The notes under the pieces are model-generated. The model was given only the letters and a program-made list of their open reading frames with translations, searched no databases and was not told where the DNA came from. DNA of 64,000 nucleotides, taken from Psychroserpens sp. Lineage in GTDB: Bacteria; Bacteroidota; Bacteroidia; Flavobacteriales; Flavobacteriaceae. The position numbers and the translations under genes are program-made. This document shows, in pieces, positions 22,429-63,981 of the stretch; the first letter of the stretch is position 1, and each line of letters begins with the position of its first letter. The stretch lies in contig JAWUWM010000050.1 of the NCBI GenBank assembly GCA_034111845.1, forward strand, positions 3,562 to 67,561, written 5' to 3'.

Positions 22429-22471
22429 TGATATTTATCATAATTTACTTTGAGGATACTTAGTAACTTAG
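22429..22471 (+). promoter_or_regulatory. Regulon box + -7 element (usp)
   Basis: TGATATTTATCA 22429-22440, 23 bp, TAACTTAG at 22464. Confidence 0.85.
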
Positions 22472-22495
22472 TATTGAACCCAATTGGTTTGAATT

Positions 22496-23332
22496 ATGAA
22501 AAAAATATTATTACCCACAGATTTTTCTGAGAACTCTATCAACGCTATACATTACGCACTAAATTTATTTGAACATGATACATGTACTTTTTTTATACTT
22601 CATGTAAAAAGTTCAACATCCTATACTACTGATGATTTAATGCTTGCAGGCAGTGAAAGTCTTTATGACTCCATAGTCAAAGGCACAAAAGATCAACTTG
22701 ATAACTTAGTTGCTAGATTGAAAAAACAGTTTAATAATAAGAATTTTCAATATGAAACGATTGTAGATTATGATATTTTAATCGCAGCGATAAAGCAAGT
22801 TAAAACATCAAAACAGATAGATTTAATAGTGATGGGAAGTAATGGTGTTACTGGTGCAAAAGAAGTTGTTTTTGGGAGCAATACCATCAATGTTATCAGA
22901 AATGTTGATTCTGATATATTAGTTATTCCTGAGGGTTTTCAATTTGAGAAACTAAAAGAGATTTTACTTCCACTAGATTCTTTTGATTCTATGGGTGGTA
23001 AAGCGTTTTCTAAAATATTAAAATTCGTTAAAGCTTACTCTAGTAAATTACATGTTTTAAGAATAAATCAAAATGGGATCACACTAGATGTTCAAAATAA
23101 TGACTTAAAGAATATTGCATATTTTTTAAAAGATTTTCCCGGAATTTATCATAATATTAATGGCGTACCTATGCATTTTGCAGTTAGTAATTATATTCAA
23201 ACGCATGCCATAGGTTTAACAATACTTATTGAACAGAAAGAACTACTCTTTGAGCGTTTTTTTATGGGCTCTTCAACCACAAAAATTGGAAATAATATTG
23301 AAGTTCCACTTTTAGTGTTTCATAGTAGTTAA
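22496..23332 (+). CDS. Universal stress protein (tandem USP)
   Basis: KILLPTDFSENS, DLIVMGSNG..FGSNT. Confidence 0.93.
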   Translation: MKKILLPTDFSENSINAIHYALNLFEHDTCTFFILHVKSSTSYTTDDLMLAGSESLYDSIVKGTKDQLDNLVARLKKQFNNKNFQYETIVDYDILIAAIKQVKTSKQIDLIVMGSNGVTGAKEVVFGSNTINVIRNVDSDILVIPEGFQFEKLKEILLPLDSFDSMGGKAFSKILKFVKAYSSKLHVLRINQNGITLDVQNNDLKNIAYFLKDFPGIYHNINGVPMHFAVSNYIQTHAIGLTILIEQKELLFERFFMGSSTTKIGNNIEVPLLVFHSS

Positions 23333-23422
23333 TAATTGGTTTTAATGAACAACTAAAAAAGGCTCTATGGTAAATTTAAGAGGCCTAATTATACTATTCT
23401 GATTCTGTTTATTTCGCTATTT

Positions 23423-24094
23423 TTACTGATGAATAATGTTTTCAGTTTTTTCTTCTTTTATAATTAAGGGTGTTATTAATTGCTCTTCTTCCAATATTGC
23501 AATAGCTAATTTCACATAATCATTTACTGTTTTTTCAATAGATCTTGGGTCTGTGATGTTGATGTAGCCTTTCCATATAAGTTCTCTGTCTTTTGTTGGG
23601 CAAATACAATACATTGAGGTTTCTGCCTTATAAATTTTATATTCTTCATAGTAGTCTGGATTATAGACTATATCTTGATGTATTAAATAGTCATCTTTAA
23701 ATTTTAGATATGTTTCACCGTAATTTTTATAATCTCTTTTATAAACTGTTTTATCTTCAACACCCGTAATTTTAGTGAGGATTATAGTGTCAAACCCATC
23801 TTCAATAAGCTTGCTTTCTAGAGAATCTAAGTCTGCTTCTGTCATTCTATCAGTTTTTGAAGTATGATCTAATACATTCAAACTGATAACAGCTTCAGTA
23901 CCTCTGAGTTCTAGTTCATTTTTTAGTTTTTCTTCGAATTGCTGCCTCGCAGCCTTGTCTGAAGTCAAGCCAACTATCAGTACTTTATAAGGTTCGTACG
24001 TATCTATATTTGGATTTTTCCAACGCTCTACTAATTGTGTTGAAGAGCAACTGATTAAAAGAGCAGTTGCAATTATTGCTAGTGATTTTTTCAT
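23423..24094 (-). CDS. Hypothetical lipoprotein
   Basis: LISC lipobox, KVLIVG, ELIWKG. Confidence 0.75.
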   Translation of the reverse strand: MKKSLAIIATALLISCSSTQLVERWKNPNIDTYEPYKVLIVGLTSDKAARQQFEEKLKNELELRGTEAVISLNVLDHTSKTDRMTEADLDSLESKLIEDGFDTIILTKITGVEDKTVYKRDYKNYGETYLKFKDDYLIHQDIVYNPDYYEEYKIYKAETSMYCICPTKDRELIWKGYINITDPRSIEKTVNDYVKLAIAILEEEQLITPLIIKEEKTENIIHQ

Positions 24095-24111
24095 AACAAT
24101 TGATATCTAAG

Positions 24112-24561
24112 TTATTCTCTATCTAATAGGTGTCTTTGTTTGTCTTCCTTTTTGATGTCTTTTATAATTCTAAAGAGTTCAGATTTCATTAACTTATACT
24201 CTTTTAGGAAGTCGGTAATTGCTATGATTAAATCGCTGTGTTCTTTGGTGTAAGCTTTTTCTTGTTCCACCTGGTTTATACCATCAATCATTATTTGTAG
24301 TTCATTTTCATGAACCTTAACTGCTTCTATAAGAATATTATTTCGTTTTTGAGATTTATTAATTACATCGACAATTTCTTTAGTATCAGAAAATTTTCCT
24401 GACTCAATTATTAAAGAAGTAAACGATGTTATAAGGTATTCAAAAAACAGATGTTCATCTTTTATAAAACTTAATTCAGATAGCCATTCTTTTGATGCTT
24501 GGTGTATTTCATCAGCACTTAGCCATTGTACATATTTAACCTGTGTTTGTATAGTTTTCAT
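24112..24561 (-). CDS. Conserved helical hypothetical protein
   Basis: HQASKEWLSELSFIKDE...HENEL; resembles the split gene at 25181-25592. Confidence 0.75.
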   Translation of the reverse strand: MKTIQTQVKYVQWLSADEIHQASKEWLSELSFIKDEHLFFEYLITSFTSLIIESGKFSDTKEIVDVINKSQKRNNILIEAVKVHENELQIMIDGINQVEQEKAYTKEHSDLIIAITDFLKEYKLMKSELFRIIKDIKKEDKQRHLLDRE

Positions 24562-24577
24562 TATTTGTTTTTTTTAA

Positions 24578-24619: not shown

Positions 24620-24624
24620 GATGA

Positions 24625-25074
24625 TTACAAAACCTCAATTATTTTTTTAGACTTTTCTTTAGCCTCCTCTATCTTTTGAAGATTTAGTTTTAGAATACCA
24701 TTTTTGTAAGTAGCTTTTACATCTTGATTGGTATTAACTGATACCGGAAGTTTTAATGACCTTTTAAAGGAATTGTAACTAAACTCTTTACGAGTGTAAT
24801 CTTCTTCTTTTTCTTCGACTTCTTTTTCCTTTTGGCCACATACATTGAGTGTGTTGTCCTCAATAGTAACTTCAAAATCCTTTTTTGAAAATCCAGGGGC
24901 TGCAAATTCAATTTCATAATCTTGATCGTGTTCTTTGACGTTCATTGCAGGCATTAAACTGTCTTCGTCTAAAAAGTCATGGTTAAAAAAATGATCAGTA
25001 CTTAAAAAACTTTTAAGACTCTCGTTGTTCCATGGAAATAATCTATTTCCGTTGTTAAATTTTAGTATTGACAT
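24625..25074 (-). CDS. Hsp20/alpha-crystallin small heat-shock protein
   Basis: PAMNVKE..APGF..REFSYNSFKRS..ATYKNGIL. Confidence 0.95.
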   Translation of the reverse strand: MSILKFNNGNRLFPWNNESLKSFLSTDHFFNHDFLDEDSLMPAMNVKEHDQDYEIEFAAPGFSKKDFEVTIEDNTLNVCGQKEKEVEEKEEDYTRKEFSYNSFKRSLKLPVSVNTNQDVKATYKNGILKLNLQKIEEAKEKSKKIIEVL

Positions 25075-25112: not shown

Positions 25113-25155
25113 CTAAATTACTACTTAAGTGCGTTTTGTGAAATGATAAATATCA
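25113..25155 (-). promoter_or_regulatory. Regulon box + -7 element (hsp20)
   Basis: TGATAAATATCA 25144-25155, 23 bp, TAATTTAG (minus, 25120). Confidence 0.85.
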
Positions 25156-26977: not shown

Positions 26978-26990
26978 TTTGATTGTTTAT

Positions 26991-27908: not shown

Positions 27909-28316
27909 TTAAGTCGACTCAAAGAAGTCTCTTACCCAGGCTTTTACTTGATTTTCTGTCATACTATCAGTCTTTGTTGTTCTTTTTATTTTTGTACTCA
28001 AAAGTTTATAATTGTTATGTAATTCGTCACGAAACTTTTCATTTGTTCCTGCAGGGCCAAAAAGAACTAAAGCATCACTGTCATTAATCTTAGTTGTGAT
28101 ATCTGTAAAATACTGTTTGAGTTGATGTTTTTCACGTTCTAAATATTTACTATCTTGGACAACGTCTTGTGGGCCACCTTTTTGACGTGTTCCTGAGCCA
28201 CCATGATTATTATAGTGCTCTATGTTTGATGAAACAATTTGTAACGTTTCCTCTTCATTTTCTATGGTTACAATGAGAGCCTTGTCTTTGTCTAACCAGA
28301 TGCCTGTTTTTTTCAT
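27909..28316 (-). CDS. Hypothetical protein, eRF1-middle-domain/host-attachment-like
   Basis: GIWLD..ALIV, Gly-rich loop GGSGTRQKGGPQD, ..YF..I....ALVLFGP. Confidence 0.65.
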   Translation of the reverse strand: MKKTGIWLDKDKALIVTIENEEETLQIVSSNIEHYNNHGGSGTRQKGGPQDVVQDSKYLEREKHQLKQYFTDITTKINDSDALVLFGPAGTNEKFRDELHNNYKLLSTKIKRTTKTDSMTENQVKAWVRDFFEST

Positions 28317-28328
28317 TTTAAATATGTT

Positions 28329-35433: not shown

Positions 35434-37310
35434 AATTGCGCTTTGTTTGGAAGTTCTATCGTAAAGATTGATCCTTCATGTTCTTTACTTTCAAAAGTAA
35501 TAGTTCCATTTAAATGTCCTAAGTGATCTTTCACGATATTTAAACCGATACCTGTGCCTTGCAAAAGCAATGCGTTTTCTGCTCTAAAATAGCGGTTAAA
35601 TATATTTTTTTGATCTTTTTTTGGAATCCCAATTCCGTTATCTTTGATTTTGAAGATGGTGTTGCCTTCATTTTGCGAAATACTAACATCTATAATTGTG
35701 TTTTCTGAAGAATATTTAATAGCATTATAGATTAAATTTGATAACACCAATTCTATAATTTTTTCATCTTGGTATAATGAAACTTCGTCAATATTATCTG
35801 GATAATTAATTTGTTGGCCATCTTTTAATAACATATTAGCGTTATAAATAACTTCATTTAAAACCTTACTCAATTTAAATGTTGTAAAATTATAATTGAT
35901 TTTACCTTTCTCTAATTTTTCTACAGAAAGGAAATCATTCAAAATTTTATTGAGATATTGAACTTTATCTGTGATTGTTTTTATATGTTTCTCACGTTTC
36001 TCTTGTTGCTCGGTTAATTTGTATTTACTCAATAATATTGTTGAGGTTAAAATACCACTAAGCGGTGTTTTGAATTCATGAGACACCATAGATAGGAACT
36101 TGGTTTTTAGGTCGTTGAGTTCTTTTTCTGCGGTTAAAGCGGTTTGTAACTCTTTAGTTCTTAGAGCGACGGTGTTTTCTAATTTTTCTGTATAGTTTTT
36201 TTGTTCTGTGATGTCTAAAATAATAGCAAAGTATACTCTTTTATCCATTAATTGAGACATTTGCAAATGTACTTCTACAGGATATGTCGAACCATCTTTT
36301 CTTTGATGTACCGTTTCAAATTCAATTTTATTAACGAGTTTGTTAGTTAATGGGGCAATTATTTCTTTAAATTGTTGTTCGTTAAGATTAGGTTTAATGT
36401 CATCGGGTCTCATAGTTTTAAGCTCATCTAAACTGTAGCCTATGTTTTTTTGAGCTCCATAATTTGCATTTATAAAATGCAATGTATCTTCTTCAAATAC
36501 AAATATTTCATTTAAAGACTCGTCAAACATTGCAGATAAATGATTGCTTTCTTGATCAGCTCTTTTACGTGCGGTGATGTCATTTTGAATCCCTATAAAA
36601 TGGGTCACATTTCCTTTTTTATCTTTTATGGGTGTAACGTACAAATCGTTCCAAAATAAACGTCCATCCTTGTTATAGTTCCGAATTATTGCATGACAAC
36701 TTTCTCCTTTTTTAATTGCATTACGAAGTATTACGGTGCCTTCCTGATCTTTATCATCTGCTTGTAAAAACCTACAATTTTTATGCAATATTTCTTCGGA
36801 AGAGTAACCTGTTAATTTTTCGAATGCAGAGTTAAAATAAATAATAGGGTTGTCTTCTAGAGAAGCATCTGTAATAATGATACCATTGCTTGCTGATTCT
36901 AATGCTTGGCTTTTAAGCATTAGATTTTTTTCAATTTCTTTTCTCTCTGTAATATCTATAACTAAAGCCATTACATAGTTTTTACCATAAATGGTAAAAG
37001 GATTTAGACTCGCTTCTATGGGGAAAACATTACCATCCTTTTTAGTGCCAAAAATATCACGACCATGTCCCATTTGACGTTGTTCGTTATTTTTGATAAA
37101 GCCTTTAAAATGGTCACCATGTTTTGCATGATAATTTTTAGGGATTAGAATGTTAAGAGGCTGTTTGAGTAGTTCTTTACCATTATATCCAAACATCATC
37201 GTTGCAGCTTCATTAGCTTCAACAATATTTTGATGCTCATCAACTACAACAACACCTTCTGAAATAGAGTTTAAAAGGATATTGAAAATATCTTGATCTT
37301 GTTTAAACAT
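35430..37310 (-). CDS. Cytoplasmic sensor histidine kinase: FixL-like PAS + LOV + PAS + HisKA + HATPase
   Basis: PAS1 NILIP..HAKH..GHGR..KKDG..FP; PAS2 NCRFLQ/RNY/FWN/GIQ; SHEFKTPL (H411); NAIKYS, DNGIGI, GTGIGL; no TM segments. Confidence 0.93.
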   Translation of the reverse strand: MFKQDQDIFNILLNSISEGVVVVDEHQNIVEANEAATMMFGYNGKELLKQPLNILIPKNYHAKHGDHFKGFIKNNEQRQMGHGRDIFGTKKDGNVFPIEASLNPFTIYGKNYVMALVIDITERKEIEKNLMLKSQALESASNGIIITDASLEDNPIIYFNSAFEKLTGYSSEEILHKNCRFLQADDKDQEGTVILRNAIKKGESCHAIIRNYNKDGRLFWNDLYVTPIKDKKGNVTHFIGIQNDITARKRADQESNHLSAMFDESLNEIFVFEEDTLHFINANYGAQKNIGYSLDELKTMRPDDIKPNLNEQQFKEIIAPLTNKLVNKIEFETVHQRKDGSTYPVEVHLQMSQLMDKRVYFAIILDITEQKNYTEKLENTVALRTKELQTALTAEKELNDLKTKFLSMVSHEFKTPLSGILTSTILLSKYKLTEQQEKREKHIKTITDKVQYLNKILNDFLSVEKLEKGKINYNFTTFKLSKVLNEVIYNANMLLKDGQQINYPDNIDEVSLYQDEKIIELVLSNLIYNAIKYSSENTIIDVSISQNEGNTIFKIKDNGIGIPKKDQKNIFNRYFRAENALLLQGTGIGLNIVKDHLGHLNGTITFESKEHEGSIFTIELPNKAQL

Positions 37311-37408
37311 GTTTTGAAAGCTGCATTTTAAGAAAATAAATATAAAGATAACTAAAACTATTAAATTATAAAAATGATTATTTTTTAGTTTGAGTCTGTT
37401 GTTATAAC

Positions 37409-37451
37409 TGATTTATATCATTCTTTAAGTCTAAGGTTACATCTAATTTTA
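37409..37451 (+). promoter_or_regulatory. Regulon box + -7 element (terB-like/DUF302/trx operon)
   Basis: TGATTTATATCA 37409-37420, 23 bp, TAATTTTA at 37444. Confidence 0.85.
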
Positions 37452-37474
37452 CCACGTAAATAAAAACACAAAAC

Positions 37475-37885: not shown

Positions 37886-37887
37886 CT

Positions 37888-38741: not shown

Positions 38742-38784
38742 TGATGAATATCATTTTGTATAAATGTTTACACTACTAATTTTG
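38742..38784 (+). promoter_or_regulatory. Regulon box + -7 element (WG-S2P-ABC operon)
   Basis: TGATGAATATCA 38742-38753, 23 bp, perfect TAATTTTG at 38777. Confidence 0.9.
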
Positions 38785-39425: not shown

Positions 39426-39446
39426 TATCATATCCAAGAATTTAGA

Positions 39447-42876: not shown

Positions 42877-42877
42877 T

Positions 42878-43561: not shown

Positions 43562-43604
43562 TGATATTCATCATTTACTCATTTGAAAATGTTTTGTATC
43601 GTTG
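43562..43604 (+). promoter_or_regulatory. Regulon box + -7-like element (tetR remnant)
   Basis: TGATATTCATCA 43562-43573, 23 bp, TATCGTTG at 43597. Confidence 0.7.
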
Positions 43605-43635
43605 TTAATCAAGTGTTTAGTAGCTATGTAGTTGA

Positions 43636-43801
<166 letters not shown>

Positions 43802-43806
43802 CGGGA

Positions 43807-44404: not shown

Positions 44405-44448
44405 TGATATTAATCATTTTAGGTTATACTGTTTTTAGTTTACTTTAT
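44405..44448 (+). promoter_or_regulatory. Regulon box (cbpA operon)
   Basis: TGATATTAATCA 44405-44416; TACTTTAT at 24-bp spacing. Confidence 0.75.
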
Positions 44449-48476: not shown

Positions 48477-48519
48477 TGATATCTCTCATAGTTTATAAAA
48501 CAGGCATAATTTATATTTA
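48477..48519 (+). promoter_or_regulatory. Regulon box (1 mismatch) + -7 element
   Basis: TGATATCTCTCA 48477-48488, 23 bp, TATATTTA at 48512. Confidence 0.75.
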
Positions 48520-50352: not shown

Positions 50353-50395
50353 TGATTTTTATCATAGTTTGAAACTAGGCCCATATCTAACTTGT
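50353..50395 (+). promoter_or_regulatory. Regulon box + -7-like element
   Basis: TGATTTTTATCA 50353-50364, 23 bp, TAACTTGT at 50388. Confidence 0.8.
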
Positions 50396-50924: not shown

Positions 50925-50943
50925 AATGTGAAAATTTCAAACA

Positions 50944-51399
50944 ATGATTAGAACACTAAAAGAAAAAGAGAGCATTAAAGTTTTAGAAATAAATTACATT
51001 GGTAACTTATCTTATATCTACCAAAATAGACCTTTTATAGCGCCAATCACTTATTTTTTTGACAAAGCTAATAATGTGATTATTGGTTATTCTGCCGAAG
51101 GACATAAAGTAAACGCCATGCGTAAAAATAACAATGTGTCTCTTGGCGTTTCAAACGTTAATTCTGTGAATTCTTGGGAATCTGTTTTAGCTCAAGGTGC
51201 TTTTTTAGAGCTTTCTGGAAGTGAGGCAAAATCACAGTTACATATATTTTCTCTTGGTGTGAAAGATTTAATTATTAATAAAGAACATAGAAAGCTAGAC
51301 TTTATAAGTGAATTTTCAAGTAAAATCTATAAAGATGATCTCCCTGTTGTTTTTCAAATTAAAATTGAAGAAATTACAGGCAAAATGAGACGTAATTAA
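50944..51399 (+). CDS. Pyridoxamine 5'-phosphate oxidase-like (FMN split-barrel) protein
   Basis: IGNL..PFIAPITY..EGHKV.AMRKN..V..WESV..G..EITG. Confidence 0.85.
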   Translation: MIRTLKEKESIKVLEINYIGNLSYIYQNRPFIAPITYFFDKANNVIIGYSAEGHKVNAMRKNNNVSLGVSNVNSVNSWESVLAQGAFLELSGSEAKSQLHIFSLGVKDLIINKEHRKLDFISEFSSKIYKDDLPVVFQIKIEEITGKMRRN

Positions 51400-51414
51400 T
51401 TAAAATTATCATAA

Positions 51415-52293
51415 ATGAAATACATATATATCATCATACTATTAGTAGTGTTTACAAACTGTAAAAATGATAAAAGAGAGGAGAGCAATAATGGCGTTGA
51501 AGAAATTACTGAGACTAAACCAGTAATAGAAGATTCTTTGCAACGCATTGATTTAGACATTAAGGCTCCAGACAAATCTATTACAATTGAATTAAAACAA
51601 AAACAGTTCATTGAAAAAGTAGATGAAAGGAAAGATTTGCAAAAATTGATCATTGATAAAAGGTATCTCATAGAGAAGGAGGAGTATACAATTAATTTTA
51701 AATATCCGATACTTAATGAGTCTCTTAAACCAACTAACAGAAATTTTAATGATTTTATTAATGAGTATTATGTGAATGTGACTAAAACAGAGTCAGATAT
51801 ATTAGAAAACAAGTTATTGTGTGATAGTATAGAGGCTTTAAAATTCAGAGAAGAACGGTTTATAGATTACAAAATCTATAATGTTAACGATCAACTAGTA
51901 AGTGTGCTTTTTTATAAAGAGAATTTTTATTCGGGAGCAATGCATCCCAGTTATTCTTTTGATGGTTTTAATTTTGATTTGAATAGAGGTGTTTTTATGA
52001 ATTATGAGGACTTTTTTAATTTAGGGTCTGAAGAAGAATTAGTACTATTAATAAATGAAAAAATAAATGAGGAAATAGGAAAAGGAGACTTGTATTACGA
52101 TTGTTGGGAATTGTCCTCAGATGATTTTTTTGAGAGTAAAAATAATTTCGTGCTTAATGATAACTATGTAGAGTTTTATTTTGATGATTGCGTCATGTGT
52201 CCTTCTTACACAGGTACTTATTCTATAGAACTCCCGTTAATAGAATTATTATCAGTTTTGAAAAAATTTGATGCAAACCCTTTAGTTTTTTAG
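51415..52293 (+). CDS. RsiV/DUF3298-like lipoprotein
   Basis: FTNC lipobox, YSGAMHP, NFDL..G, F.F....PSY.G. Confidence 0.75.
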   Translation: MKYIYIIILLVVFTNCKNDKREESNNGVEEITETKPVIEDSLQRIDLDIKAPDKSITIELKQKQFIEKVDERKDLQKLIIDKRYLIEKEEYTINFKYPILNESLKPTNRNFNDFINEYYVNVTKTESDILENKLLCDSIEALKFREERFIDYKIYNVNDQLVSVLFYKENFYSGAMHPSYSFDGFNFDLNRGVFMNYEDFFNLGSEEELVLLINEKINEEIGKGDLYYDCWELSSDDFFESKNNFVLNDNYVEFYFDDCVMCPSYTGTYSIELPLIELLSVLKKFDANPLVF

Positions 52294-52329
52294 TAAAAAT
52301 TGAATAACCTAGAATGAAATGAAAATCTA

Positions 52330-52593
52330 ATGAAAACAAAAGCTTATAAAAATTGTCAAAGTTGTGGTATGCCAATAAGCAAAGACCCAGAAAAGGGGGC
52401 GACAAATTTAGATGGAACAAAAAGTAATTTATACTGCAGTTACTGTTATCAAAATGGTGAGTTTACTTTTAAAGGCACAATGAAAGAGATGCAAATTTTT
52501 TGTAAACAAAAAATGAGAGAAGATGGGTTTTCTAAATTTATAGCGTGGTTATTTACAAGAGGTATTCCTAGACTTCAACGCTGGAAAAAGTAA
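52330..52593 (+). CDS. Zinc-ribbon protein
   Basis: CQSCGMP..YCSYCY..G.F..IPRLQRW. Confidence 0.85.
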   Translation: MKTKAYKNCQSCGMPISKDPEKGATNLDGTKSNLYCSYCYQNGEFTFKGTMKEMQIFCKQKMREDGFSKFIAWLFTRGIPRLQRWKK

Positions 52594-53694: not shown

Positions 53695-53737
53695 TGACTT
53701 ATGTTATTTTATAAGCAGCTGATAATGAGTATTTTTA
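53695..53737 (+). promoter_or_regulatory. Degenerate regulon box + -7 element
   Basis: TGACTTATGTTA 53695-53706, 23 bp, TATTTTTA at 53730. Confidence 0.55.
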
Positions 53738-53763: not shown

Positions 53764-54195
53764 ATGAAGACTATAACTATTTTACTTATTACACTCTGTT
53801 CAATAGTCTCTTTTAGTCAAACAGAGAATGAAGGTGATATACTAATTAATAAGACTCAGCGGGATCATACCTATTATGCTGGAGAAACCTTCACAGTAAA
53901 TACTGTGGTGCAGAGATACTTGGTCATCGCTGTTGGAAATCTTATTATTAATGATAGTATTAACGAAAACTTGACTGCAGTTGGAGTAGAATATTTTCTC
54001 AACAGTTATATAGCAGATGATTTTCGTATAGCCGCAGGAAGGGCTATTATTGACTCATAAATAGGTGACGATTTAGTTGCTTTTGGTGGGGAAGCTATAC
54101 TTACAGAAAATGCCATAATACAAGGAGGCCTTATTTATGTTACCGGAAATATTGAAATAAATGGTGAAGTAATTTGTGGTGCAATTTTACAGTAA
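53764..54195 (+). pseudogene. Truncated secreted beta-helix (bactofilin-like repeat) protein
   Basis: Signal peptide; YYAG..V....AVG..I..DFRIAAG; frame continues past TAA 54058 (IGDDLVAFGG..IQGGL..G..EINGEV). Confidence 0.7.
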
Positions 54196-54650: not shown

Positions 54651-54890
54651 TCATTTCTTAAGTAATCGAAAATTTTCCCGAAGAAAAACATAAACTTTTA
54701 ATGCATGAAGTATTAGTGCAATTCCCCAGCCCATCATTGGCCATTTTGCCCAGAAATAATCTGGTGACCAGAATAAATTAATGATAATGAGTAATGTATT
54801 TATAAATATATACACGTATACATGATTTCTAAACGCAATTTTTGCTTCAACGCGTTGTTTTGCATTTTGATATGCATCATTTGTTTTCAT
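54651..54890 (-). CDS. 2TM-domain protein
   Basis: Y..AK.RV....F..H...Y..IN..L..IN...WA.WP..GWG.AL..HA..V. Confidence 0.85.
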   Translation of the reverse strand: MKTNDAYQNAKQRVEAKIAFRNHVYVYIFINTLLIIINLFWSPDYFWAKWPMMGWGIALILHALKVYVFLRENFRLLKK

Positions 54891-54941
54891 GATAGATGTT
54901 TTTTATGATGTATTGTTTCCAAATAATTTTTTAAGTCGTCA

Positions 54942-55009
54942 TAAATTTACAAGGATAACCTTAGTAAATAAATGATTTATATCAGTAAAAACGGATATGA
55001 TGGTTATCA
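54942..55009. promoter_or_regulatory. Two adjacent regulon boxes at a divergent junction
   Basis: TGATTTATATCA 54973-54984 (23 bp to TAAATTTA, minus); TGATGGTTATCA 54998-55009 (nearest TAATTTTA only 18 bp away). Confidence 0.75.
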
Positions 55010-55041
55010 TATATTATTAGATAGTATTAATTTTAGTCAAA

Positions 55042-56330: not shown

Positions 56331-56735
56331 TTATAGTTTTTCAAGAAAATATTTCATGAGGTCTTCTGTAGATACAATGCCTACAATATTTTTACCCTCA
56401 ACTATTGGGACTGCACGAAATTTTCCTTTTGAAAGTACGGAGGCTATTTCTTTAATCGTGGTATCAGGTCTTGATGAATAGGGGTTGGAGGTCATAATAT
56501 CCTTAACCAAGAGTTCGGTGTATATAGAATTATTATCATCAAGACCAGCACCTTTAATTCTGTACATAAAATCAATTAAACTTACCATTCCAACCAGCTT
56601 GCCATTTTCGGTAACAGGAATGTGATGGTGAAATTTTTTTTTCTCATAAATGTGCTTAACATCTATGATTTCTTGTTTTGGAGAAACACAAACGACATTT
56701 TTTGTCATGATTGAAGATACAGGTGTAGATTTCAT
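56331..56735 (-). CDS. CBS-pair protein
   Basis: VSSIMT..HHIPV..GKLVGMVS; VKDIMT..AVPIV..VGIVS.ED. Confidence 0.92.
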   Translation of the reverse strand: MKSTPVSSIMTKNVVCVSPKQEIIDVKHIYEKKKFHHHIPVTENGKLVGMVSLIDFMYRIKGAGLDDNNSIYTELLVKDIMTSNPYSSRPDTTIKEIASVLSKGKFRAVPIVEGKNIVGIVSTEDLMKYFLEKL

Positions 56736-56759: not shown

Positions 56760-56833
56760 CCAAATTAAATTAAAGTCTACTAAAAACTCATGATTAATAT
56801 CATTTTTAAGCACATGCTTAAGTAATATATTTA
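56760..56833. promoter_or_regulatory. One regulon box serving two divergent promoters
   Basis: TGATTAATATCA 56791-56802; TAATTTGG (minus, 56767) and TATATTTA (plus, 56826), each 23 bp away. Confidence 0.85.
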
Positions 56834-56950: not shown

Positions 56951-57325
56951 ATGAAAACTAGAACCATGTTGGAGCTGCTCACGTTATCAACGAGTATCTA
57001 CCATTTTGCAAAAGAAGCACAACTTATGGATAGAATTAATGAGTTATCTGATAAGGGTAAAGATGGTATTAACAAAGTAGCTTCAGATTCACAATTAGGT
57101 GAAGATGGTAATGAACTTGAATTTATTGATAAGTTTATTCTTAAAGCAAATCAAGTAAAGGAAGAACTTGAGCAAAAAATTGAAGAGCAGGTTATTCAAA
57201 TTTACAAAAAAATGAATATTGCGCATTTAGATGACATAACAGCGCTCAATGAAAAGGTTAATAAAATAGATAAGGAAAATGCGCTATTAGAAGCACGTTT
57301 AATTCGTTTAGAAGCAAAGGAATAA
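56951..57325 (+). CDS. Phasin-like coiled-coil protein
   Basis: Helical; ..KKMNIAH.DDI..L..K..LE C-terminus; directly upstream of the UbiB kinase. Confidence 0.6.
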   Translation: MKTRTMLELLTLSTSIYHFAKEAQLMDRINELSDKGKDGINKVASDSQLGEDGNELEFIDKFILKANQVKEELEQKIEEQVIQIYKKMNIAHLDDITALNEKVNKIDKENALLEARLIRLEAKE

Positions 57326-57326
57326 G

Positions 57327-59030
57327 ATGGGAGTTTTTAGGATAATCAGTAATAGATACAATTCGGTTGCTAGATATAATCAAATTATAAAGGTCTTGGT
57401 TAAATATGGCTTTGATGACTTGGTCTTTTATATGAGAAAGGAAAAACGATATCAGTTTTTTCAAAAATTCATTCCCAGATCTTCAAAGAAGCGCGCTATG
57501 CTGCATACAAAATGGGAAAAAATGCGTTTGGTTTGTGAAGAGCTTGGGCCAACATTTGTGAAGTTCGGACAAATAATGAGTAATCGACCTGATTTGATTC
57601 CGTTTGATTTAGTTTTTGAGTTAGAGAAATTACAAAATAACGTTCCGCCAATACCTGAAAATCAAGCTAAAGAAATTGTAGAGTCTCAACTTAAAGATAA
57701 GGTAGAAAATTTATTTGCTTGGTTTGATCCTACACCTTATGCATCTGCTTCAATGGCGCAAGTACATAAAGTAATAATGAAGACTGGGGAGCGAATTATT
57801 CTAAAAATTCAACGACCAGGTATTCGCGAAATTATTTTTGAAGACATAAAAGTGATGTATACTATAGCTGCTGTTCTAGAAAATCGAATCCCTTCTTTAA
57901 AAAGTTTTGATCCTGTTGGATTAGTTAAAAACTTTGAAGAATCAATTTTAAAGGAGCTCGATTTTATTAATGAATCTATAAATGTTCAACGATTTTATAA
58001 TAATATAAATAATGATACCGGTAAAGATCAATTTGCCTGTGCACCCAAAGTTTATCAGGATTATACTACAGATAAAATACTGGCATTAGAATTTATGTCT
58101 GGTATTAAAATAAATAAAATAAAAGAGTTAGAAGATTCTGGAGTTGATACTAAGATTATTGGTAAGCGATTAACTACTACTTATTTTAAACAAATTTTTG
58201 AGTATGGATTTTTTCATGCAGATCCACATCCAGGTAATTTATTGGTCATGCCAAATGGTTCTATTTGTTATTTAGATTTTGGAATGATGGGTAGTATTCT
58301 GCCTAGGGATATTGAAGTATTCGGACAATTATTCATGTCAATTATAAAGAAGGACGTCTATAAAATCATCAAAGTACTGCAAAAACTATCCAGTAATTCT
58401 GCCATTACTAATATGAGAGATTTAGAATTTGATCTCAATGAATTTGTAGAGAAAAACTATGTAAGGACTATTCATAAAAATGAAATGAGTACAGTGCTAC
58501 TCGAACTAAAGGATATAATAGTGGCACATGGTTTAAAAGTACCAACTTATTTTTATCTTTTTGCTAGATCATTGGTGACTATAGAGGGCGTGATAGAAAA
58601 ACTAAACCCAGATTTGCAACAGTTTAATATGGTTCGTCCATATTTAATTAAAAGTGTGTCTAAAAATTATAACCCATTAAAGATGGGTGAAAAAGTGCTT
58701 AACTCTATGTATGAGTTGAGTAATTATATGGAAGATTTCCCAGGAGATTTAAAAAATGCTATTCGCAAAATAAATAGTGGACAAGTAAAAGTAGACTTAA
58801 CCCACAAGGGTATTGATCCAATGGTGCATACGTTACAAAGGATAGCAAAACAATTGGTTAGTGCTTTCATAGCTGTGGCTTTAGTCGTTGGTTCATCACT
58901 ATTTATTATTAATGATGTAAAACCGTTATGGAGCGAAACGTCTGTTTTTGGTATTTTTGGTATTCTACTAGCAGGTATAATTATTTTTGGATTGTTAATG
59001 AACTTTAAAAAAGGGGATTATGATAACTAA
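57327..59030 (+). CDS. ABC1/UbiB (AarF) atypical kinase
   Basis: LGPTFVKFGQ, ASASMAQVH, KIQRPG, ELDF..E, FHADPHPGN, DFG. Confidence 0.93.
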   Translation: MGVFRIISNRYNSVARYNQIIKVLVKYGFDDLVFYMRKEKRYQFFQKFIPRSSKKRAMLHTKWEKMRLVCEELGPTFVKFGQIMSNRPDLIPFDLVFELEKLQNNVPPIPENQAKEIVESQLKDKVENLFAWFDPTPYASASMAQVHKVIMKTGERIILKIQRPGIREIIFEDIKVMYTIAAVLENRIPSLKSFDPVGLVKNFEESILKELDFINESINVQRFYNNINNDTGKDQFACAPKVYQDYTTDKILALEFMSGIKINKIKELEDSGVDTKIIGKRLTTTYFKQIFEYGFFHADPHPGNLLVMPNGSICYLDFGMMGSILPRDIEVFGQLFMSIIKKDVYKIIKVLQKLSSNSAITNMRDLEFDLNEFVEKNYVRTIHKNEMSTVLLELKDIIVAHGLKVPTYFYLFARSLVTIEGVIEKLNPDLQQFNMVRPYLIKSVSKNYNPLKMGEKVLNSMYELSNYMEDFPGDLKNAIRKINSGQVKVDLTHKGIDPMVHTLQRIAKQLVSAFIAVALVVGSSLFIINDVKPLWSETSVFGIFGILLAGIIIFGLLMNFKKGDYDN

Positions 59031-59087: not shown

Positions 59088-59690
59088 TCAAGCTTTGCTC
59101 ACAAATGCTTGTTTTAAATGCGTAAATGCCTCAGAAATTTCACTTTGAAAATGCTCCAATTTCGTCTCTTCTTTTTTAGTGTAATTTGATTTAAAGTCAT
59201 CAACGAATTTTTTAAACTCTTGTTTTCCTTTTTCAAAAGATGCTTTAGTATCTGTTTTACCTTGATTTAATTTTTCTTCTAAAATTTCAAGACTAATTTT
59301 AAATTGTTCAATTTCAATTAAAACAATTGCATACATGCGTTTAAATGTTTCATTGGTTTTAATCTCTACTTCAATTTCATGCAATTTTAGCAGTAATTGT
59401 TTTTTTTGTTCTTTAAATGTTTCTAATGATTGTGCTTTACCAAGTGCTAATTGTACTCGAAGTTCGTCAAATTTAGTATGTAGATTATCTGCCTTTTCTT
59501 TACCAGTTTTAGCTTTAAATTTGCTATCATGAATAAATAAGTTGAGTTTCTTTTTTAATTCTTCATACTTGTCTTGCGCTTCGGCTTTGCCTAGTGCTGC
59601 TTTTACTTGAAACTCCTCTATCTCAATAGTTGTTTTTTTTAGAGCTTCAACAATCTTGTCTATAAAGTGAGTGTTTTGCGCTGTTTCCAT
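59088..59690 (-). CDS. Hypothetical coiled-coil protein
   Basis: Internal repeat EEFQVKAALGKAEA / DELRVQLALGKAQS. Confidence 0.75.
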   Translation of the reverse strand: METAQNTHFIDKIVEALKKTTIEIEEFQVKAALGKAEAQDKYEELKKKLNLFIHDSKFKAKTGKEKADNLHTKFDELRVQLALGKAQSLETFKEQKKQLLLKLHEIEVEIKTNETFKRMYAIVLIEIEQFKISLEILEEKLNQGKTDTKASFEKGKQEFKKFVDDFKSNYTKKEETKLEHFQSEISEAFTHLKQAFVSKA

Positions 59691-59745
59691 AATAATTAGA
59701 TTTTATATTCAATATAAATATCAACACAATCCTTGTAAAATTCTA

Positions 59746-59757
59746 TGATATATATCA
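59746..59757 (-). promoter_or_regulatory. Regulon box (coiled-coil gene)
   Basis: TGATATATATCA; -7 degenerate (GATATTTA at 23 bp). Confidence 0.7.
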
Positions 59758-59890: not shown

Positions 59891-59933
59891 TGATAAAAAT
59901 CATTTTAATGATGGGACTTGATAATTAATTTTA
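59891..59933 (+). promoter_or_regulatory. Regulon box + -7 element (mgtC-like)
   Basis: TGATAAAAATCA 59891-59902, 23 bp, TAATTTTA at 59926. Confidence 0.85.
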
Positions 59934-59955: not shown

Positions 59956-61257
59956 ATGGGAGACTTTTTAACGTTAACAGATAAATTGGAACTCACACAA
60001 TTTGATTTTTTAGTCAGATTGGTAGTTTCTTTAGGCATCGGTCTTGTAATTGGTTTAGAGCGTGAGTTTTCAAGTAATAATAAAAATGAAATTTTTGCGG
60101 GTTTACGTACGATGTCTATTGTGTCGTTAACTGGTTTTGTCTGTGCCTTTTTAAGTTTTACATTTTTTCCTTGGATGTTTCTTGCAGGTTTTTTTAGTAT
60201 TGTACTTATTGTCGCTATTTCCTATTGGGTAACCTCAAAAAAAGGTGATATTGGAAGTACTTCAGAGTTTGCTACCATAATCACCTACATTTTGGGAGGT
60301 TTAACCTTATTAGGTCATATTGAATATAGTTTGGCATTAACAGTAATAATAGTTGTATTACTATCTCTAAAACTTAAATTTCAAAATATAATAGGGCAAA
60401 TTACGGAAGATGAGTTATCTGCTTTTATTAGGTTTGTTATTATTGCTTTGTTGATTTTACCTTTTCTTCCAAATGAAAAATATGGTCCATATAATGTAAT
60501 AAACCCAAGAGAAATTGGATGGGTTGTAGTATTAACTTCTGGTATTGGGTTTGTTGGTTATTTTTTGATGAAGTTTTTAAATTCAAAAAGAGGATTGCTT
60601 TTAACGGGCATTTTAGGAGGAATGGTATCTAGTACAGTTGTTTCTTGGGTGTTTTCTAAAAGGAGTAAAGAAAACCCTATATTGTCTAGTAGCTATGCTA
60701 TTGCAATTTTTGCAGCAGCAACAGTTATGATAGTTCGAGTATTGGTCTGGGTTTATATATTTAATAAATCAATGGTCAAAGGTTTATTACTACCAATTGT
60801 AATTATGATTTTGGCTGCTTTAAGTGTAACGCTTTACTTTTATAAAAAACAACATAGTAAACCATCTGATTCTGAAAAAATTCCTTTAGGTGAACCATTA
60901 AATATTAGAGATGCTGTTTTTTTTGGAATATTATATACTGGAATTTTAATATTGGTAAGTTATGCAAGTACCGAATATGGAGACAAAGGAATTTATATTT
61001 CAAGTGCTATAAGTGCACTTACAGATATTGATGCAATTACGATATCAATGTCTAAATTAGGAGGAAGCAACATTAACTATCTTACTGCTCAAAATGCTAT
61101 ACTATTAGCTATTTTAACAAACACTATTATTAAAATTAGCTTATCACTTTGGTTTGGGTCTAAACAGTTAAAAAAATATGTGTTAGTTGGTTATGGGTTG
61201 ATTTTTTTAGCAGGAGTAATAGGCTTTGTAATATTAAATAATAATTCACTATTTTAA
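59956..61257 (+). CDS. MgtC/SapB + DUF4010 membrane protein
   Basis: GLVIGLERE..AGLRT, G.TSE, LPFLPN..GPY..NP, GG..SST, DIDAI. Confidence 0.88.
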   Translation: MGDFLTLTDKLELTQFDFLVRLVVSLGIGLVIGLEREFSSNNKNEIFAGLRTMSIVSLTGFVCAFLSFTFFPWMFLAGFFSIVLIVAISYWVTSKKGDIGSTSEFATIITYILGGLTLLGHIEYSLALTVIIVVLLSLKLKFQNIIGQITEDELSAFIRFVIIALLILPFLPNEKYGPYNVINPREIGWVVVLTSGIGFVGYFLMKFLNSKRGLLLTGILGGMVSSTVVSWVFSKRSKENPILSSSYAIAIFAAATVMIVRVLVWVYIFNKSMVKGLLLPIVIMILAALSVTLYFYKKQHSKPSDSEKIPLGEPLNIRDAVFFGILYTGILILVSYASTEYGDKGIYISSAISALTDIDAITISMSKLGGSNINYLTAQNAILLAILTNTIIKISLSLWFGSKQLKKYVLVGYGLIFLAGVIGFVILNNNSLF

Positions 61258-61299: not shown

Positions 61300-62280
61300 T
61301 CAGTCTTTAGTTTTAGTCTCTTTTTTTTCTAGTTTTCTAAAATAACTTCTCGTTAGAAAGTTGTGCTTAAGAGCCTCCATATTCTGGTTAAATTTATCTG
61401 TACCTTCATTTATATTCTCTAAAGTAGATTTTAAACTTTTTACGAGCAAAGTATCTCTAACAATATAATTATAAGTCCCTTCGCTAGAATTGAAATCTTC
61501 AACAGCAGCATTGATGTTTTGTAACACACTTTCAATTTCTGTGCTAGATGTCTCAAGATTATCTACAATAGTTTTTAGCTTTCCTCCAGAAATTGTATCA
61601 TTGATTAACATACCAAGAACTGTATGATCATTTGTTTTAATTGACGACATAATAGCCTTCAATTCATTAATAGTACTAGAAGCACCATAACTAGCGTTTT
61701 TAAGATTAGTAATAGATTGTTTTAGGTCTTTTGCCATTATAGTGTCATTGAGTAGCATACCAATAGTCCCCTTACCTTTAGTAATATTATTAGTGATTTT
61801 TAAGAGATCTGAAGTTAGAATTGCTGCGTTTTCAGTACTAGTGTTTAGTGTGCTTAAAATGTCATCAGTACCAATTTTACTGTAAGATTCAATGATATCT
61901 CCATTACTTATAACTTCGGAAATTCCCTTTCCTGGAACAATGTTTACAATCATATTACCAACTAATCCATCTGACCCAATTGTAGCAATTGCATCTTTCT
62001 TGATATGAGTGATGATTTTTTCATCAATATTCATATCAATTTTTATGGTAGAATCATTAATCATTGTAATGTCTTTAACAGTTCCAATTTCAATTCCAGA
62101 ATATCTTACGTTATTCCCTTTTTGTAAACCATTAACATTCTGAAAAAAGGCACTTATGGTAAATATTTTTTTAAACATGTTTTGGCGTTGACCAATGAGG
62201 TAAACACCAACAATAAAAAGAATAGTTCCTATGAGAACGAAAACTCCTAATCGTAGTTTTTGTGAGTTTGTTTTTTTCAT
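61300..62280 (-). CDS. MCE/MlaD-family protein
   Basis: TM, GLQKGNNVRYSGIEIGTV, DGLVG. Confidence 0.9.
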   Translation of the reverse strand: MKKTNSQKLRLGVFVLIGTILFIVGVYLIGQRQNMFKKIFTISAFFQNVNGLQKGNNVRYSGIEIGTVKDITMINDSTIKIDMNIDEKIITHIKKDAIATIGSDGLVGNMIVNIVPGKGISEVISNGDIIESYSKIGTDDILSTLNTSTENAAILTSDLLKITNNITKGKGTIGMLLNDTIMAKDLKQSITNLKNASYGASSTINELKAIMSSIKTNDHTVLGMLINDTISGGKLKTIVDNLETSSTEIESVLQNINAAVEDFNSSEGTYNYIVRDTLLVKSLKSTLENINEGTDKFNQNMEALKHNFLTRSYFRKLEKKETKTKD

Positions 62281-62376
62281 GTGCTTCTATGTATTTTTTT
62301 TTAAAAACTATCACATGCTGTTCGCAATTAATCATTTTCTTGTGATAATGCATGTGTTATGTTCGTTTCATAATCA

Positions 62377-63138
62377 TTAATGTTTAAAAAAGACTTTAAT
62401 TTTTGGGTCTTTATGATTTGATAATTCTTGATAAGTTCCAACAACATAATCGATACCATTAATAAGTAATATCATTCGATCTGAAATGACTCTTGCGCAA
62501 TCCACATCATGGGTAATAATGATTGATGAGGTATTGTATTTTTTCTGAATCTCTTGCATTAGAATTATGATTTCTTTAGCAGTAATAGGATCTAGGCCAC
62601 TCGTTGGTTCATCGTATAAGATAATTTTAGGTTGTAGAATTAAAGTTCGTGCCAATGCAACACGTCGTTTCATACCACCAGATAATTCAGAAGGCATCAA
62701 ATCTATAGCACTAACCAAACCCACGCTTTCTAATGCCTCTATGACGAGTTTTTCAGTATTAAAATTGGATTCAAACTTTTTACAGTGTCTTCTCAATGGG
62801 AATTCTAAATTTTCTCGTACAGTCATGGAGTCATATAGAGCACTACCTTGAAATAGAAATCCAATATCTGCTCTTAAAATATCTAAAGCCTCTTGAGTTA
62901 ATTTAGTAATGTCTTTTTGCATTACTGAAATCGAGCCATTATCTGCCTCCATTAAACCTACCAAGCATTTAATCATTACCGATTTCCCAGAACCTGATTT
63001 TCCCATGATTACTAAGCTCTCTCCTTGTTGAAGCTGCATGTTAAAACCATTTAATACATGATTGTCTCCAAAACTCTTGTGTAGGTTTTTAATTTCCAAA
63101 ACAATGTTTTGGTTTGATATGTTGTTGGATTCTATCAT
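62377..63138 (-). CDS. MlaF-type ABC ATPase
   Basis: GKSGSGKS, LYDSMTV, PSELSGGMKRRV, YDEPTSGLDP. Confidence 0.9.
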   Translation of the reverse strand: MIESNNISNQNIVLEIKNLHKSFGDNHVLNGFNMQLQQGESLVIMGKSGSGKSVMIKCLVGLMEADNGSISVMQKDITKLTQEALDILRADIGFLFQGSALYDSMTVRENLEFPLRRHCKKFESNFNTEKLVIEALESVGLVSAIDLMPSELSGGMKRRVALARTLILQPKIILYDEPTSGLDPITAKEIIILMQEIQKKYNTSSIIITHDVDCARVISDRMILLINGIDYVVGTYQELSNHKDPKIKVFFKH

Positions 63139-63917
63139 AAATCGTAAAAAATATCGGTTACAAATACAGCTATAAAGTCTATAATAAATAGTAATAAGGA
63201 GGTAAGAACTACTGCAGTGTTTGCAGCTCTACCAACACCTGCAGTTCCTTTTTCGCAGTAATAACCTTTATAACAACCTACAATTCCAATGGCCAATCCA
63301 AAAAAGAAAGATTTTATTGTTGCAGGAATGATATCACCAAATTCTAATGAATCAAATACCTGACTAAAGTAAAGTGTGAATGATACATTTCCTTTTGCGT
63401 TTTCTACTAAAAAGGAGCCAAACAATGCAATTGCATCTCCCATAATTACTAAAATAGGGAGCATTAGTGTAATGGCTAAAATGCGAGTAACAACCAAATA
63501 TTTAAAAGGATTAGTGCCAGAAACCTCCATAGCATCAATTTGCTCAGTGACTTTCATAGAGCCAATTTCTGCTCCAATACCTGAACCAATTCGTCCAGCA
63601 CAAACCAAGGCTGTAAGAATAGGTCCAATCTCCCTTACAATTGAAATACTCACCATAGATGGCATCCATGATACAGCACCAAACTCCATAAGTGTTGGTC
63701 TTGTTTGTAGCGTTAGAACTAGACCTATAATGAAACCTGTAATACCGACTAACAACAAGGACTTATTTCCCATATTGTAGCATTGGTTTAATAATTCTTT
63801 AAACTCAAATGGGCGCTTAAATAATTCTTTAAAAAAGCGAGCGGTAAAATATGAAATATCTCCTATTTCGATTAAAAAGGAATCAAACTGCACTTTTAAA
63901 TTATGAATACCTGACAT
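63135..63917 (-). CDS. MlaE-type permease
   Basis: VREIGP, AGRIGSGIGAEIGSMKVTEQIDA, GVGRA. Confidence 0.92.
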   Translation of the reverse strand: MSGIHNLKVQFDSFLIEIGDISYFTARFFKELFKRPFEFKELLNQCYNMGNKSLLLVGITGFIIGLVLTLQTRPTLMEFGAVSWMPSMVSISIVREIGPILTALVCAGRIGSGIGAEIGSMKVTEQIDAMEVSGTNPFKYLVVTRILAITLMLPILVIMGDAIALFGSFLVENAKGNVSFTLYFSQVFDSLEFGDIIPATIKSFFFGLAIGIVGCYKGYYCEKGTAGVGRAANTAVVLTSLLLFIIDFIAVFVTDIFYDL

Positions 63918-63938
63918 ACTTTATTATAATCATCTTAT

Positions 63939-63981
63939 CAAATATATGAGAATTGGGTAGTGGTAAAAATGATATTAATCA
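63939..63981 (-). promoter_or_regulatory. Regulon box + -7 element (mla operon)
   Basis: TGATATTAATCA 63970-63981, 23 bp, perfect TATATTTG (minus, 63946). Confidence 0.9.

Follow-up and report, generated by a model that had tools for sequence, protein, structure and literature searches.

Why does one short palindrome stand in front of gene after gene over more than 41 kb of a Psychroserpens genome, and which protein would read it? The question arises from a 64,000-nucleotide stretch of contig JAWUWM010000050.1 (assembly GCA_034111845.1), called the window here, in which an initial annotation made from the letters alone had pointed out a box, TGAT-N4-ATCA, at about 20 promoters between 22.4 and 64 kb. 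The assembly looks like a genome recovered from sea-ice and seawater metagenomes, and the 22 public data sets that contain positions 28300-38290 of the window are all DNA metagenomes (ice, seawater, sediment). From the evidence set out below we consider that the boxes are probably class II sites for an activator of the CRP/FNR family, read most likely by the protein encoded at 34381-35433, which would act below a haem-PAS kinase in a regulon for hypoxia or dormancy.

A pattern search found 24 perfect matches to TGAT-N4-ATCA in the window. Dinucleotide-preserving shuffles of the same DNA gave 2.46 ± 1.61 matches with a maximum of 7, and none of 100 shuffles reached 24, confirming that the boxes are real and occur far above chance. 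All 17 perfect boxes reported earlier, from 22429 to 63970, were recovered at their coordinates and three more were seen in the region (36745 and 37231, within the kinase gene, and 54868); the reported near-matches carry one mismatch each at 30141, 34346 and 48477 and two at 53695. Every box that had been called intergenic is so on the open reading frame (ORF) map, as are 18 of the 20 perfect boxes of 22.4-64 kb. The arrangement had not been noticed in the first 22.3 kb, and the four boxes there are all in coding sequence, none of them with a −7 partner. Intergenic DNA has 2.64 boxes per kb inside the cluster as against 0.042 per kb elsewhere in the 3.3-Mb assembly, a 63-fold difference, so that an equal density in unrelated intergenic DNA, on which the regulon would have been given up, is not what the genome holds. 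In coding sequence the density is 0.051 per kb, equal inside and outside the cluster. The cluster extends about 5 kb beyond the end of the window and is about 45 kb long.

The boxes are tied to promoters by a fixed distance. Each box was oriented toward the gene that it faces, and the −7 octamer was taken as TAnnTT(T)(G/A). When one box mismatch or a −7-like octamer was allowed, a −7 element exactly 23 bp past the box was found at 20 boxes, serving 21 promoters in the window (Table 1), where the initial annotation had counted 18 boxes; the four elements that it described as perfect TAnnTTTG (32430, 34322, 38777 and 63946) are all present. With perfect boxes and TAnnTT as the search terms, the 23-bp spacer occurs at 15 cluster sites and any other spacer of 8-40 bp at two at most, while outside the cluster the same histogram, taken over the whole genome, is flat with 0-8 occurrences per value. 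The distance from box end to ATG is 45-58 nt at 16 promoters.

Aligned as a logo, 69 sites taken from six genomes give a-a-[C/A]-TGAT-w-w-A-T-ATCA-T-T-T and, beyond 20 positions without constraint, TA-a-t-TT-t-[A/G]. The consensus is near a 14-bp palindrome, ATGATATATATCAT, and its promoter-proximal half is the more conserved. The proximal flank is T in 67 of the 69 sites and the distal flank mostly C (39 sites) or A (25 sites), as the first reading of the flanks had it, and unlike the TTGAT..ATCAA of FNR. Bacteroidota sigma-A reads −33/−7 promoters, not −35/−10, and the downstream element, by its consensus and by the four perfect examples in the window, is the sigma-A −7 motif TAnnTTTG; an alternative sigma factor was rejected as an explanation on this ground. 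The T-T-T that follows the box supplies three of the four bases of the −33 element TTTG, at the −33 place, with the fourth-position G in 11 of 69 sites. The −33 element hence looks weakened rather than absent or replaced. The earlier proposal of an activator that replaces it therefore stands for the position of the activator and not for the loss of the element, which seems partly kept.

In Flavobacterium psychrophilum, start sites mapped over the whole genome show TAnnTTTG to lie from −12 to −5 (Guerin et al. 2021, PMC9723704). Combined with the 23-bp gap, this puts the box at −47 to −36 and its centre at −41.5, the class II position that had been anticipated; as it rests on F. psychrophilum start sites, the position in this organism is a predicted one. 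In class II promoters of Escherichia coli FNR the TGAT..ATCA core lies at −47 to −36 and the −10 hexamer begins at −12, which also leaves 23 bp. Core, gap and predicted −41.5 centre are thus the same as in the class II promoters of E. coli FNR and Pseudomonas aeruginosa Anr. An A-rich peak 7-8 nt past the −7 element was considered as a proxy for the start site and dropped, since generic promoters have the peak too and it is indistinguishable from an A-rich leader.

The arrangement is conserved well beyond this genome. A matrix trained solely on sites from five related genomes was run over this one, and its top 13 matches genome-wide all lie in the cluster. Upstream regions were aligned with their orthologues for hsp20, three universal stress protein (USP) genes, mlaE, the WG-repeat gene, the CBS gene, p200 and p136. 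Two islands, box and −7 element, are conserved in each alignment; the spacer between them has changed its sequence but kept its length. Orthologues of the 34381-35433 regulator were found at 587 loci at least across genera of the Flavobacteriaceae, among them Flaviramulus, Algibacter, Mariniflexile, Gelidibacter, Winogradskyella, Aquimarina, Arenibacter, Maribacter, Zobellia, Aequorivita, Lutibacter and Gillisia. Within 10 kb on either side of 80 of these orthologues (1.5 Mb in all) the composite of box and −7 element occurs 202 times at a spacing of 23 and 2-15 times at each other spacing from 10 to 39; hence the 23-bp rule is family-wide.

Within the genus the regulator and the sites occur together. 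The receiver-Crp gene is present in 17 of 36 species, and the strict composite occurs 9-31 times per genome (mean near 19.5) in these 17 as against 1-11 times (mean near 5.7) in the 19 that lack it, although the species are related and such counts are no statistical proof. A reversed-pattern control gave 0-5 per genome in the same 36 relatives. The composite sites of the relatives are concentrated on the contig that carries the regulator. Furthermore, the copy of mlaE found in the island is confined to genomes that also have the regulator, which indicates that regulator and targets travel as one accessory module. Loss of the regulator set against loss of the sites was uninformative as a test, as the whole island comes and goes. 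No tRNA genes were seen inside the island (22.4 to about 69 kb in window terms), the closest being tRNA-His at 16841. A second receiver-Crp paralogue, 43-44% identical, was also seen in two relatives (G017:C15:395007-396065 and G022:C3:423869-424927, where G denotes a genome, G000 being the present one and the others relatives, and C a contig). In G017 several composites lie within 40 kb of it (C15:355234-400834), which points to a duplication of the module, box geometry included.

The candidate reader is encoded inside the cluster. The protein of 34381-35433 combines a receiver (PF00072, 3.9e-28) with a cNMP-type beta-roll (PF00027, 1e-16) and a C-terminal Crp-type HTH (PF13545, 1.6e-14), the latter two above cut-off, and has in these two domains what defines the CRP/FNR family. 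Residues 150-346 match solved chains of Mycobacterium tuberculosis CRP, GlxR, FixK2 and an FNR-type regulator; none of the structure matches spans both the receiver and the Crp halves. The recognition helix, G-I-A-T-E-T-L-I-R, does not vary among 11 orthologues of the genus, E[ST]LIR is kept in 63 of 79 family members, and the helix holds the Glu and Arg of the family (TETLIR, compared with RETVGR in CRP and VETISR in FNR). The receiver occupies the N-terminal 120 residues, is complete over PF00072 and has an invariant D52 in the motif CDIMMP. The protein hence has the phospho-acceptor Asp of a response regulator with a kinase gene adjoining it, from which phosphotransfer is predicted. The NCBIfam models for Fnr (66.9 bits, cut-off 228) and FixK (NF050806, 69.5 bits, cut-off 300) both score below cut-off on the regulator, so that it would be FixK-like in function and a CRP/FNR member by domain content rather than a member of the FixK or Fnr equivalogs. 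Its closest named orthologues are from Psychroserpens species (89-91% identity), with those of the cultured P. burtonensis and P. luteus at 89-90%, and public records label such proteins no more closely than 'response regulator'. Rigid spacing, conservation across genera, the −7 position in F. psychrophilum and the presence of this gene inside the cluster together support the CRP/FNR-family class II regulon that the initial annotation had put forward.

The genes for the kinase (35430-37310) and the regulator overlap by 4 nt, and a co-directional kinase adjoins the regulator in 68 of 79 orthologous loci. The first PAS domain of the 35430-37310 kinase, PAS1 (residues 11-127), matches the haem-PAS domains of FixL (2cmn, 1dp6) and DosP with E-values of 5e-14 to 1e-12. 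H64 and R84 of PAS1 align with the haem-ligand His and the distal Arg of FixL, and PAS1, having both the proximal His and the distal Arg, is predicted to be a haem-PAS domain. PAS2 (residues 131-260) matches the LOV domains of the Pseudomonas putida short LOV proteins, YtvA, aureochrome and phototropin (E-values 2e-36 to 1e-24) and contains the flavin-adduct Cys motif NCRFLQ, as would a LOV photosensor. The third PAS domain gave no informative match.

Comparison of the kinases that neighbour the 79 orthologous regulators suggests which of these domains is the conserved sensor. The commonest form is about 413 aa long and consists of haem-PAS, HisKA and HATPase with no LOV domain; the motif H-x16-GxGR near residue 64 is present in 29 of 42 such short kinases. 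NCRFLQ is restricted to nine forms of about 626 aa. Hence a haem-type PAS appears to be the conserved sensor, with LOV and PAS3 as insertions, and the LOV domain is, on this comparison, a lineage-specific addition. The PAS nearest HisKA was considered as the conserved sensor and ruled out, as the short kinases carry the FixL-type H-x16-GxGR near residue 64. Within the genus, the best tblastn segment of the kinase orthologues of G017 and G031 (loci L023 and L013) starts from residue 137 and leaves out the haem-PAS, and those of G007, G035 and G036 align over the full length. Sensor-domain composition thus seems to vary among Psychroserpens species.

Based on these data we propose the following mechanism. 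A dimeric activator of the CRP/FNR family would bind TGAT-N4-ATCA centred at about −41.5 on sigma-A promoters that have a good −7 and a partial −33 element. From the class II position it would touch RNA polymerase directly, and such contact would explain the invariant 23-bp distance. Its most likely identity is the 34381-35433 protein, a FixJ-like receiver joined to a FixK-like effector/HTH module, which would be phosphorylated by the co-transcribed soluble kinase of 35430-37310. The signal would be falling oxygen, perceived by the FixL-like haem-PAS, with blue light, perceived by the LOV domain, as a second input in this lineage. The regulator would then activate some 22 promoters and some 50 genes of the roughly 45-kb accessory cluster, the cbb3 oxidase, ccoI and hemN operons elsewhere may respond as well, and the physiological role would be hypoxic growth arrest or dormancy. 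The FixL-FixJ-FixK cascade would in effect have collapsed into two proteins. More tentatively, and with confidence that falls a little short of even, the receiver-FixK fusion could be a class II activator of the Bacteroidota sigma-A holoenzyme at the FNR/sigma-70 distance, in command of a self-contained and horizontally exchangeable 45-kb 'dormancy island' in half of the species of the genus, with oxygen and blue light integrated by a single kinase in this sea-ice lineage.

The best clue to the signal comes from sites outside the cluster. FixK, FNR and Anr have as signature targets the genes for the cbb3 oxidase and its maturation, together with hemN. In this genome a composite precedes ccoS(FixS)-ccoNO-ccoP-ccoG (C110:28962), a CcoI-type ATPase (C110:26458) and HemN (C41:33443; TIGR00538, 393.8 bits against a cut-off of 325), so that the box stands ahead of the same set as a FixK-type box; clpB and three genes for CBS proteins, on other contigs, also lie behind composites. 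Oxygen limitation induces the cbb3 oxidase, its maturation genes and hemN in F. psychrophilum (PMC9723704). The cco and hemN sites are the strongest indication that the box is the low-oxygen box of the family. The initial annotation had described the arrangement for the cluster, where it is indeed enriched, but to which it is not confined.

The same sites bring a second possible reader into play, and several observations weigh against the mechanism as proposed. The ccoS-type site is kept in G016, where the fusion is absent and a stand-alone Crp gene lies 3 kb away; cco-adjacent stand-alone equivalents are also present in G031 and G017, and an intact Crp paralogue with an E..R helix (AKESVVR) is encoded at C97:16261-16842 of this genome. 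Judged by sequence, there must be one further Crp/Fnr protein or more that recognizes this box. Co-occurrence cannot separate a 'reader' from a 'passenger', as the island is gained and lost whole. No composite promoter was seen for the kinase-regulator operon itself. Only those 29 of the 42 short kinases fit the strict haem motif, and a fixed −33 TTG could not be resolved among the 326 other TAnnTTTG promoters of the genome, which bears on the 'weak −33'. Start-site, expression or binding data were not found for this organism or for any orthologue.

It is therefore conceivable, although we consider it rather unlikely, that the class II sites are real and that their main reader is a stand-alone Crp/Fnr paralogue (the cco-linked one or that of C97), the fusion having other targets or a modulating role. 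Such a paralogue would account for the composites at ccoS/ccoNO, ccoI and hemN outside the island, for the G016 site, and for the 1-11 composites that fusion-less genomes retain over the 0-5 of the reversed-pattern control, and the C97 protein has a suitable helix. However, only genomes with the fusion show the surplus of about 14 sites per genome, and these sites lie around its gene, which is the sole Crp-type gene within the island; the genome-wide matrix scan found no composites near C97. Furthermore, the cco-linked paralogue beside the ccoI/ccoS promoters (G000:C110:25942-26430) has several in-frame stops in this genome and is either a pseudogene or a draft-assembly error. Counterparts next to cco sites are open in G016 (C1:112898), G031 (C2:114954) and G017 (C20:260406). 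If the stops are real, the cco and hemN boxes here may have passed to the fusion. Of the original idea that one CRP-family activator serves the boxes, we thus retain the fusion as the likely reader and give up its being the sole possible one, given the stand-alone cco-linked paralogue in the genus.

A repressor would account for the palindrome far less well, and we regard it as very improbable. RNA polymerase could be kept out by a palindrome next to the −33 region, repression is known for some CRP-family proteins, and the cluster would then be silent until the repressor left its operator, which would overlap the upstream promoter region. Repressor operators tolerate variable positions, however, and the spacing found here is held exactly at more than 200 sites across genera; the geometry is that of class II activation and is shared by the canonical activated targets ccoNO and hemN, and one site serves two divergent promoters symmetrically. 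That the arrangement reflects promoters duplicated along with the paralogous USP genes (at least seven in the cluster) or a compositional artefact of AT-rich DNA (the genome has 33% G+C), with no shared regulation, can be practically dismissed, since shuffles give 2.5 boxes, coding box density is the same in and out of the cluster, the spacers have no common sequence, most targets are unrelated genes and only box and −7 element are conserved in orthologous promoters.

The closest mechanistic relative of the proposed circuit, with the fusion as activator, is FixL-FixJ-FixK of rhizobia and Caulobacter (FixLJ-FixK2 of Bradyrhizobium diazoefficiens). Both have a haem-PAS kinase, predicted as such here, and a Crp/FNR-type activator without an Fe-S cluster; the FixK2 box is of the TTGA-N6-TCAA type at about −41.5, and the FixK2 targets (the cbb3 genes fixNOQP/ccoNOQP, fixGHIS, hemN and stress proteins) have counterparts among the genes behind composites here. 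They differ in that a separate FixJ (REC-LuxR) that activates fixK is replaced by a single polypeptide of receiver and FixK-like module, so that there is neither a LuxR-type output nor a relay via fixK, in the flanks ([A/C]TGAT..ATCAT, not TTGAT..ATCAA), in the Bacteroidota −7 element and in the LOV domain of the kinase in this lineage. The recognition-helix Glu and Arg (E-x3-R) are shared with FNR and Anr. Unlike FNR, the regulator has no N-terminal Cys cluster, its receiver standing there instead, which would make oxygen sensing by an Fe-S centre impossible, and sigma factor and promoter type (−33/−7) are also different. Ser212 of FNR, which reads the outer T of TTGAT, is replaced by Ile in the regulator, which would fit the loss of that T from the box.

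In gene content there is a resemblance to the DosS/DosT-DosR system of M. tuberculosis, in which a haem-sensor kinase governs a regulon of tandem USPs, HspX, a CBS-pair protein, a P-type ATPase and an S30AE/HPF-type factor. The likeness ends with gene content: DosR belongs to the NarL/LuxR type and has a different motif, and the sensor domain is GAF, not PAS. The cluster also resembles the lxa locus of Burkholderia cenocepacia, an accessory set of 50 genes activated by low oxygen (Sass et al. 2013, PMC3721108). The lxa locus holds six USPs, an alpha-crystallin Hsp, a metal-dependent RNase, a cation ATPase and ABC transporters, has TGA-N6-TCA at 17 intergenic points, and has an Anr-like Crp gene, BCAM0287, next to the two-component pair BCAM0288/0289 (PMC3721108). 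The Crp gene and the response regulator gene BCAM0288, adjacent but separate in lxa, are joined here in one protein with a FixJ-type receiver and a FixK-type output. The phylum and promoter type differ, and low-oxygen induction was demonstrated for lxa (PMC3721108), whereas we infer it here.

Full-text literature searches found no published study of the regulator, the box or the cluster in Bacteroidota; PMC8510549 mentions only MalR-like Crp homologues in a Flavobacteriales metagenome-assembled genome. The present analysis adds the base-pair-exact 23-bp rule, genome- and family-wide, the size and content of the island and the LOV insertion in the kinase. To our knowledge, low-oxygen sensing and survival are essentially unstudied in the Flavobacteriaceae, which are major degraders of algal matter in sea and sea ice and meet oxygen-poor particles and brine channels there. 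The cluster offers a complete, testable circuit of sensor, regulator, about 22 promoters and outputs that include USPs, Hsp20, a ribosome hibernation factor and the cbb3 oxidase, and a natural system for asking how an activator contacts Bacteroidota RNA polymerase. The 23-bp rule predicts a class II contact geometry older than the divergence of the promoter types.

Table 1. Box promoters, candidate reader and partner kinase in the window. Positions are those of the window; scores are matrix scores.
Position	Strand	Elements	Gene(s) concerned	Score	Remarks
22429..22471	+	box TGATATTTATCA, −7 TAACTTAG (22464-22471)	tandem-USP gene 22496-23332	23.6	box end to ATG 55 nt
25113..25155	−	box, −7 TAATTTAG	Hsp20 24625-25074, then 24112-24561, 23423-24094	31.8	box and −7 kept in 4 relatives
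29207..29249	−	box, −7 TATTTTTA	operon from USP 28329-29183 down to 25604	30.5	USP, 135-aa protein, ATP-cone/Mrr-like protein, beta-CASP RNase (last)
30110..30152	−	one-mismatch box, weak −7 TAATTTCC	USP 29255-30085	16.5
31896..31938	−	box, −7 TAAATTTA	USPs 31022-31870, 30161-31006	31.8	16-nt block ATCTGATATATATCAT unchanged in 6 genomes
32423..32465	−	box, perfect −7 TACATTTG	ribosome hibernation factor HPF 32096-32398
32998..33040	−	box, −7 TATCTTAG			orphan promoter, high-scoring; next ~630 nt without ORF of 80 aa or more
34315..34357	−	one-mismatch box TGACGAATATCA, perfect −7 TAGATTTG	USP 33453-34295, membrane protein 33053-33439		TGAC variant also in orthologous promoters
34381..35433	−		candidate box reader		Response_reg, cNMP_binding, HTH_Crp_2 fusion; helix ATETLIR
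35430..37310	−		partner histidine kinase		predicted haem-PAS, LOV, third PAS, HisKA, HATPase
37409..37451	+	box, −7 TAATTTTA	37475-37885, DUF302, thioredoxin	32.2
38742..38784	+	box, perfect −7 TAATTTTG	operon 38811-43552		WG-repeat protein, M50-CBS protease, HlyD, ABC permease/ATPase
43562..43604	+	perfect box, weak −7 TATCGTTG	frameshifted ABC-2-type permease-like remnants	10.2
44405..44447	+	box, −7-like TTACTTTA	70-aa ORF (44475), DnaJ/CbpA-like protein, MerR_2 gene
48477..48519	+	one-mismatch box, −7 TATATTTA	CDP-alcohol phosphatidyltransferase, metallophosphoesterase
50353..50395	+	box, −7 TAACTTGT	50418-52593: unknown protein, Pyridox_ox_2, DUF3298-like, Zn-ribbon
53695..53737	+	two-mismatch box, −7 TATTTTTA	98-aa ORF 53764-54060	8.5	weak candidate; 57 nt upstream of the ORF
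54942..54984	−	box, −7 TAAATTTA	79-aa membrane protein 54651-54890	27.9
56760..56833	both	single box 56791-56802, −7 elements 23 bp off on either strand	CBS-pair gene 56331-56735; phasin-like/UbiB operon 56951-59030		divergent targets
59715..59757	−	box, GATATTTA	gene 59088-59690		box, spacer length and −7 kept in 3 relatives
59891..59933	+	box, −7 TAATTTTA	MgtC/DUF4010 gene 59956-61257	28.0
63939..63981	−	box, perfect −7 TATATTTG	mlaE-mlaF-mlaD, 63917 down to 61300

Scans with Pfam and NCBIfam place at least seven tandem USPs and a UbiB/ABC1 kinase behind box promoters of the cluster; the 135-aa protein of the USP/ATP-cone/beta-CASP operon (27909-28316, minus strand) matched neither Pfam nor NCBIfam. 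A heavy-metal P-type ATPase downstream of the DnaJ and MerR_2 genes has no box of its own, and its membership in that operon is assumed. Past the end of the window, sites at the equivalent of 64848, 67781 and 68909 precede, respectively, an operon for HMA, peroxiredoxin and L,D-transpeptidase proteins, an unknown gene and a 2-hydroxyacid dehydrogenase.

Some of the promoters call for separate comment. At 56791 one palindrome is paired with two divergent −7 elements, which fits a symmetric dimer serving both promoters, and two-strand paired sites of this kind are common in the relatives. The box at 37409 also lies about 100 nt upstream of the start codon of the divergent kinase gene, and that it acts on this gene from a class I-like distance is speculation. 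The orphan promoter with its box at 33029, beside hpf, may possibly drive a regulon-controlled non-coding RNA; no Rfam family was found downstream of it or anywhere in 22-64 kb. The remnants behind 43562 are two ORFs (43916-44143 and 44034-44330) that are out of frame and by eye resemble the C-terminal part of an ABC-2-type permease, so that a gene seems to have decayed at 43562-44330 while its promoter survived. Three perfect boxes crowd into 140 bp at 54868-55010 (54868, 54973 and 54998), and only that at 54973 has a −7 partner, in minus orientation; the box at 54868 falls within the 79-aa ORF that it would control. Upstream of the cluster lies an ORF of 2021 aa (4865-10930, plus strand), and a Flavo-1 RNA (RF01705) is found at 18297-18370 on the plus strand, outside the regulon, with 45.1 bits against a gathering threshold of 42.

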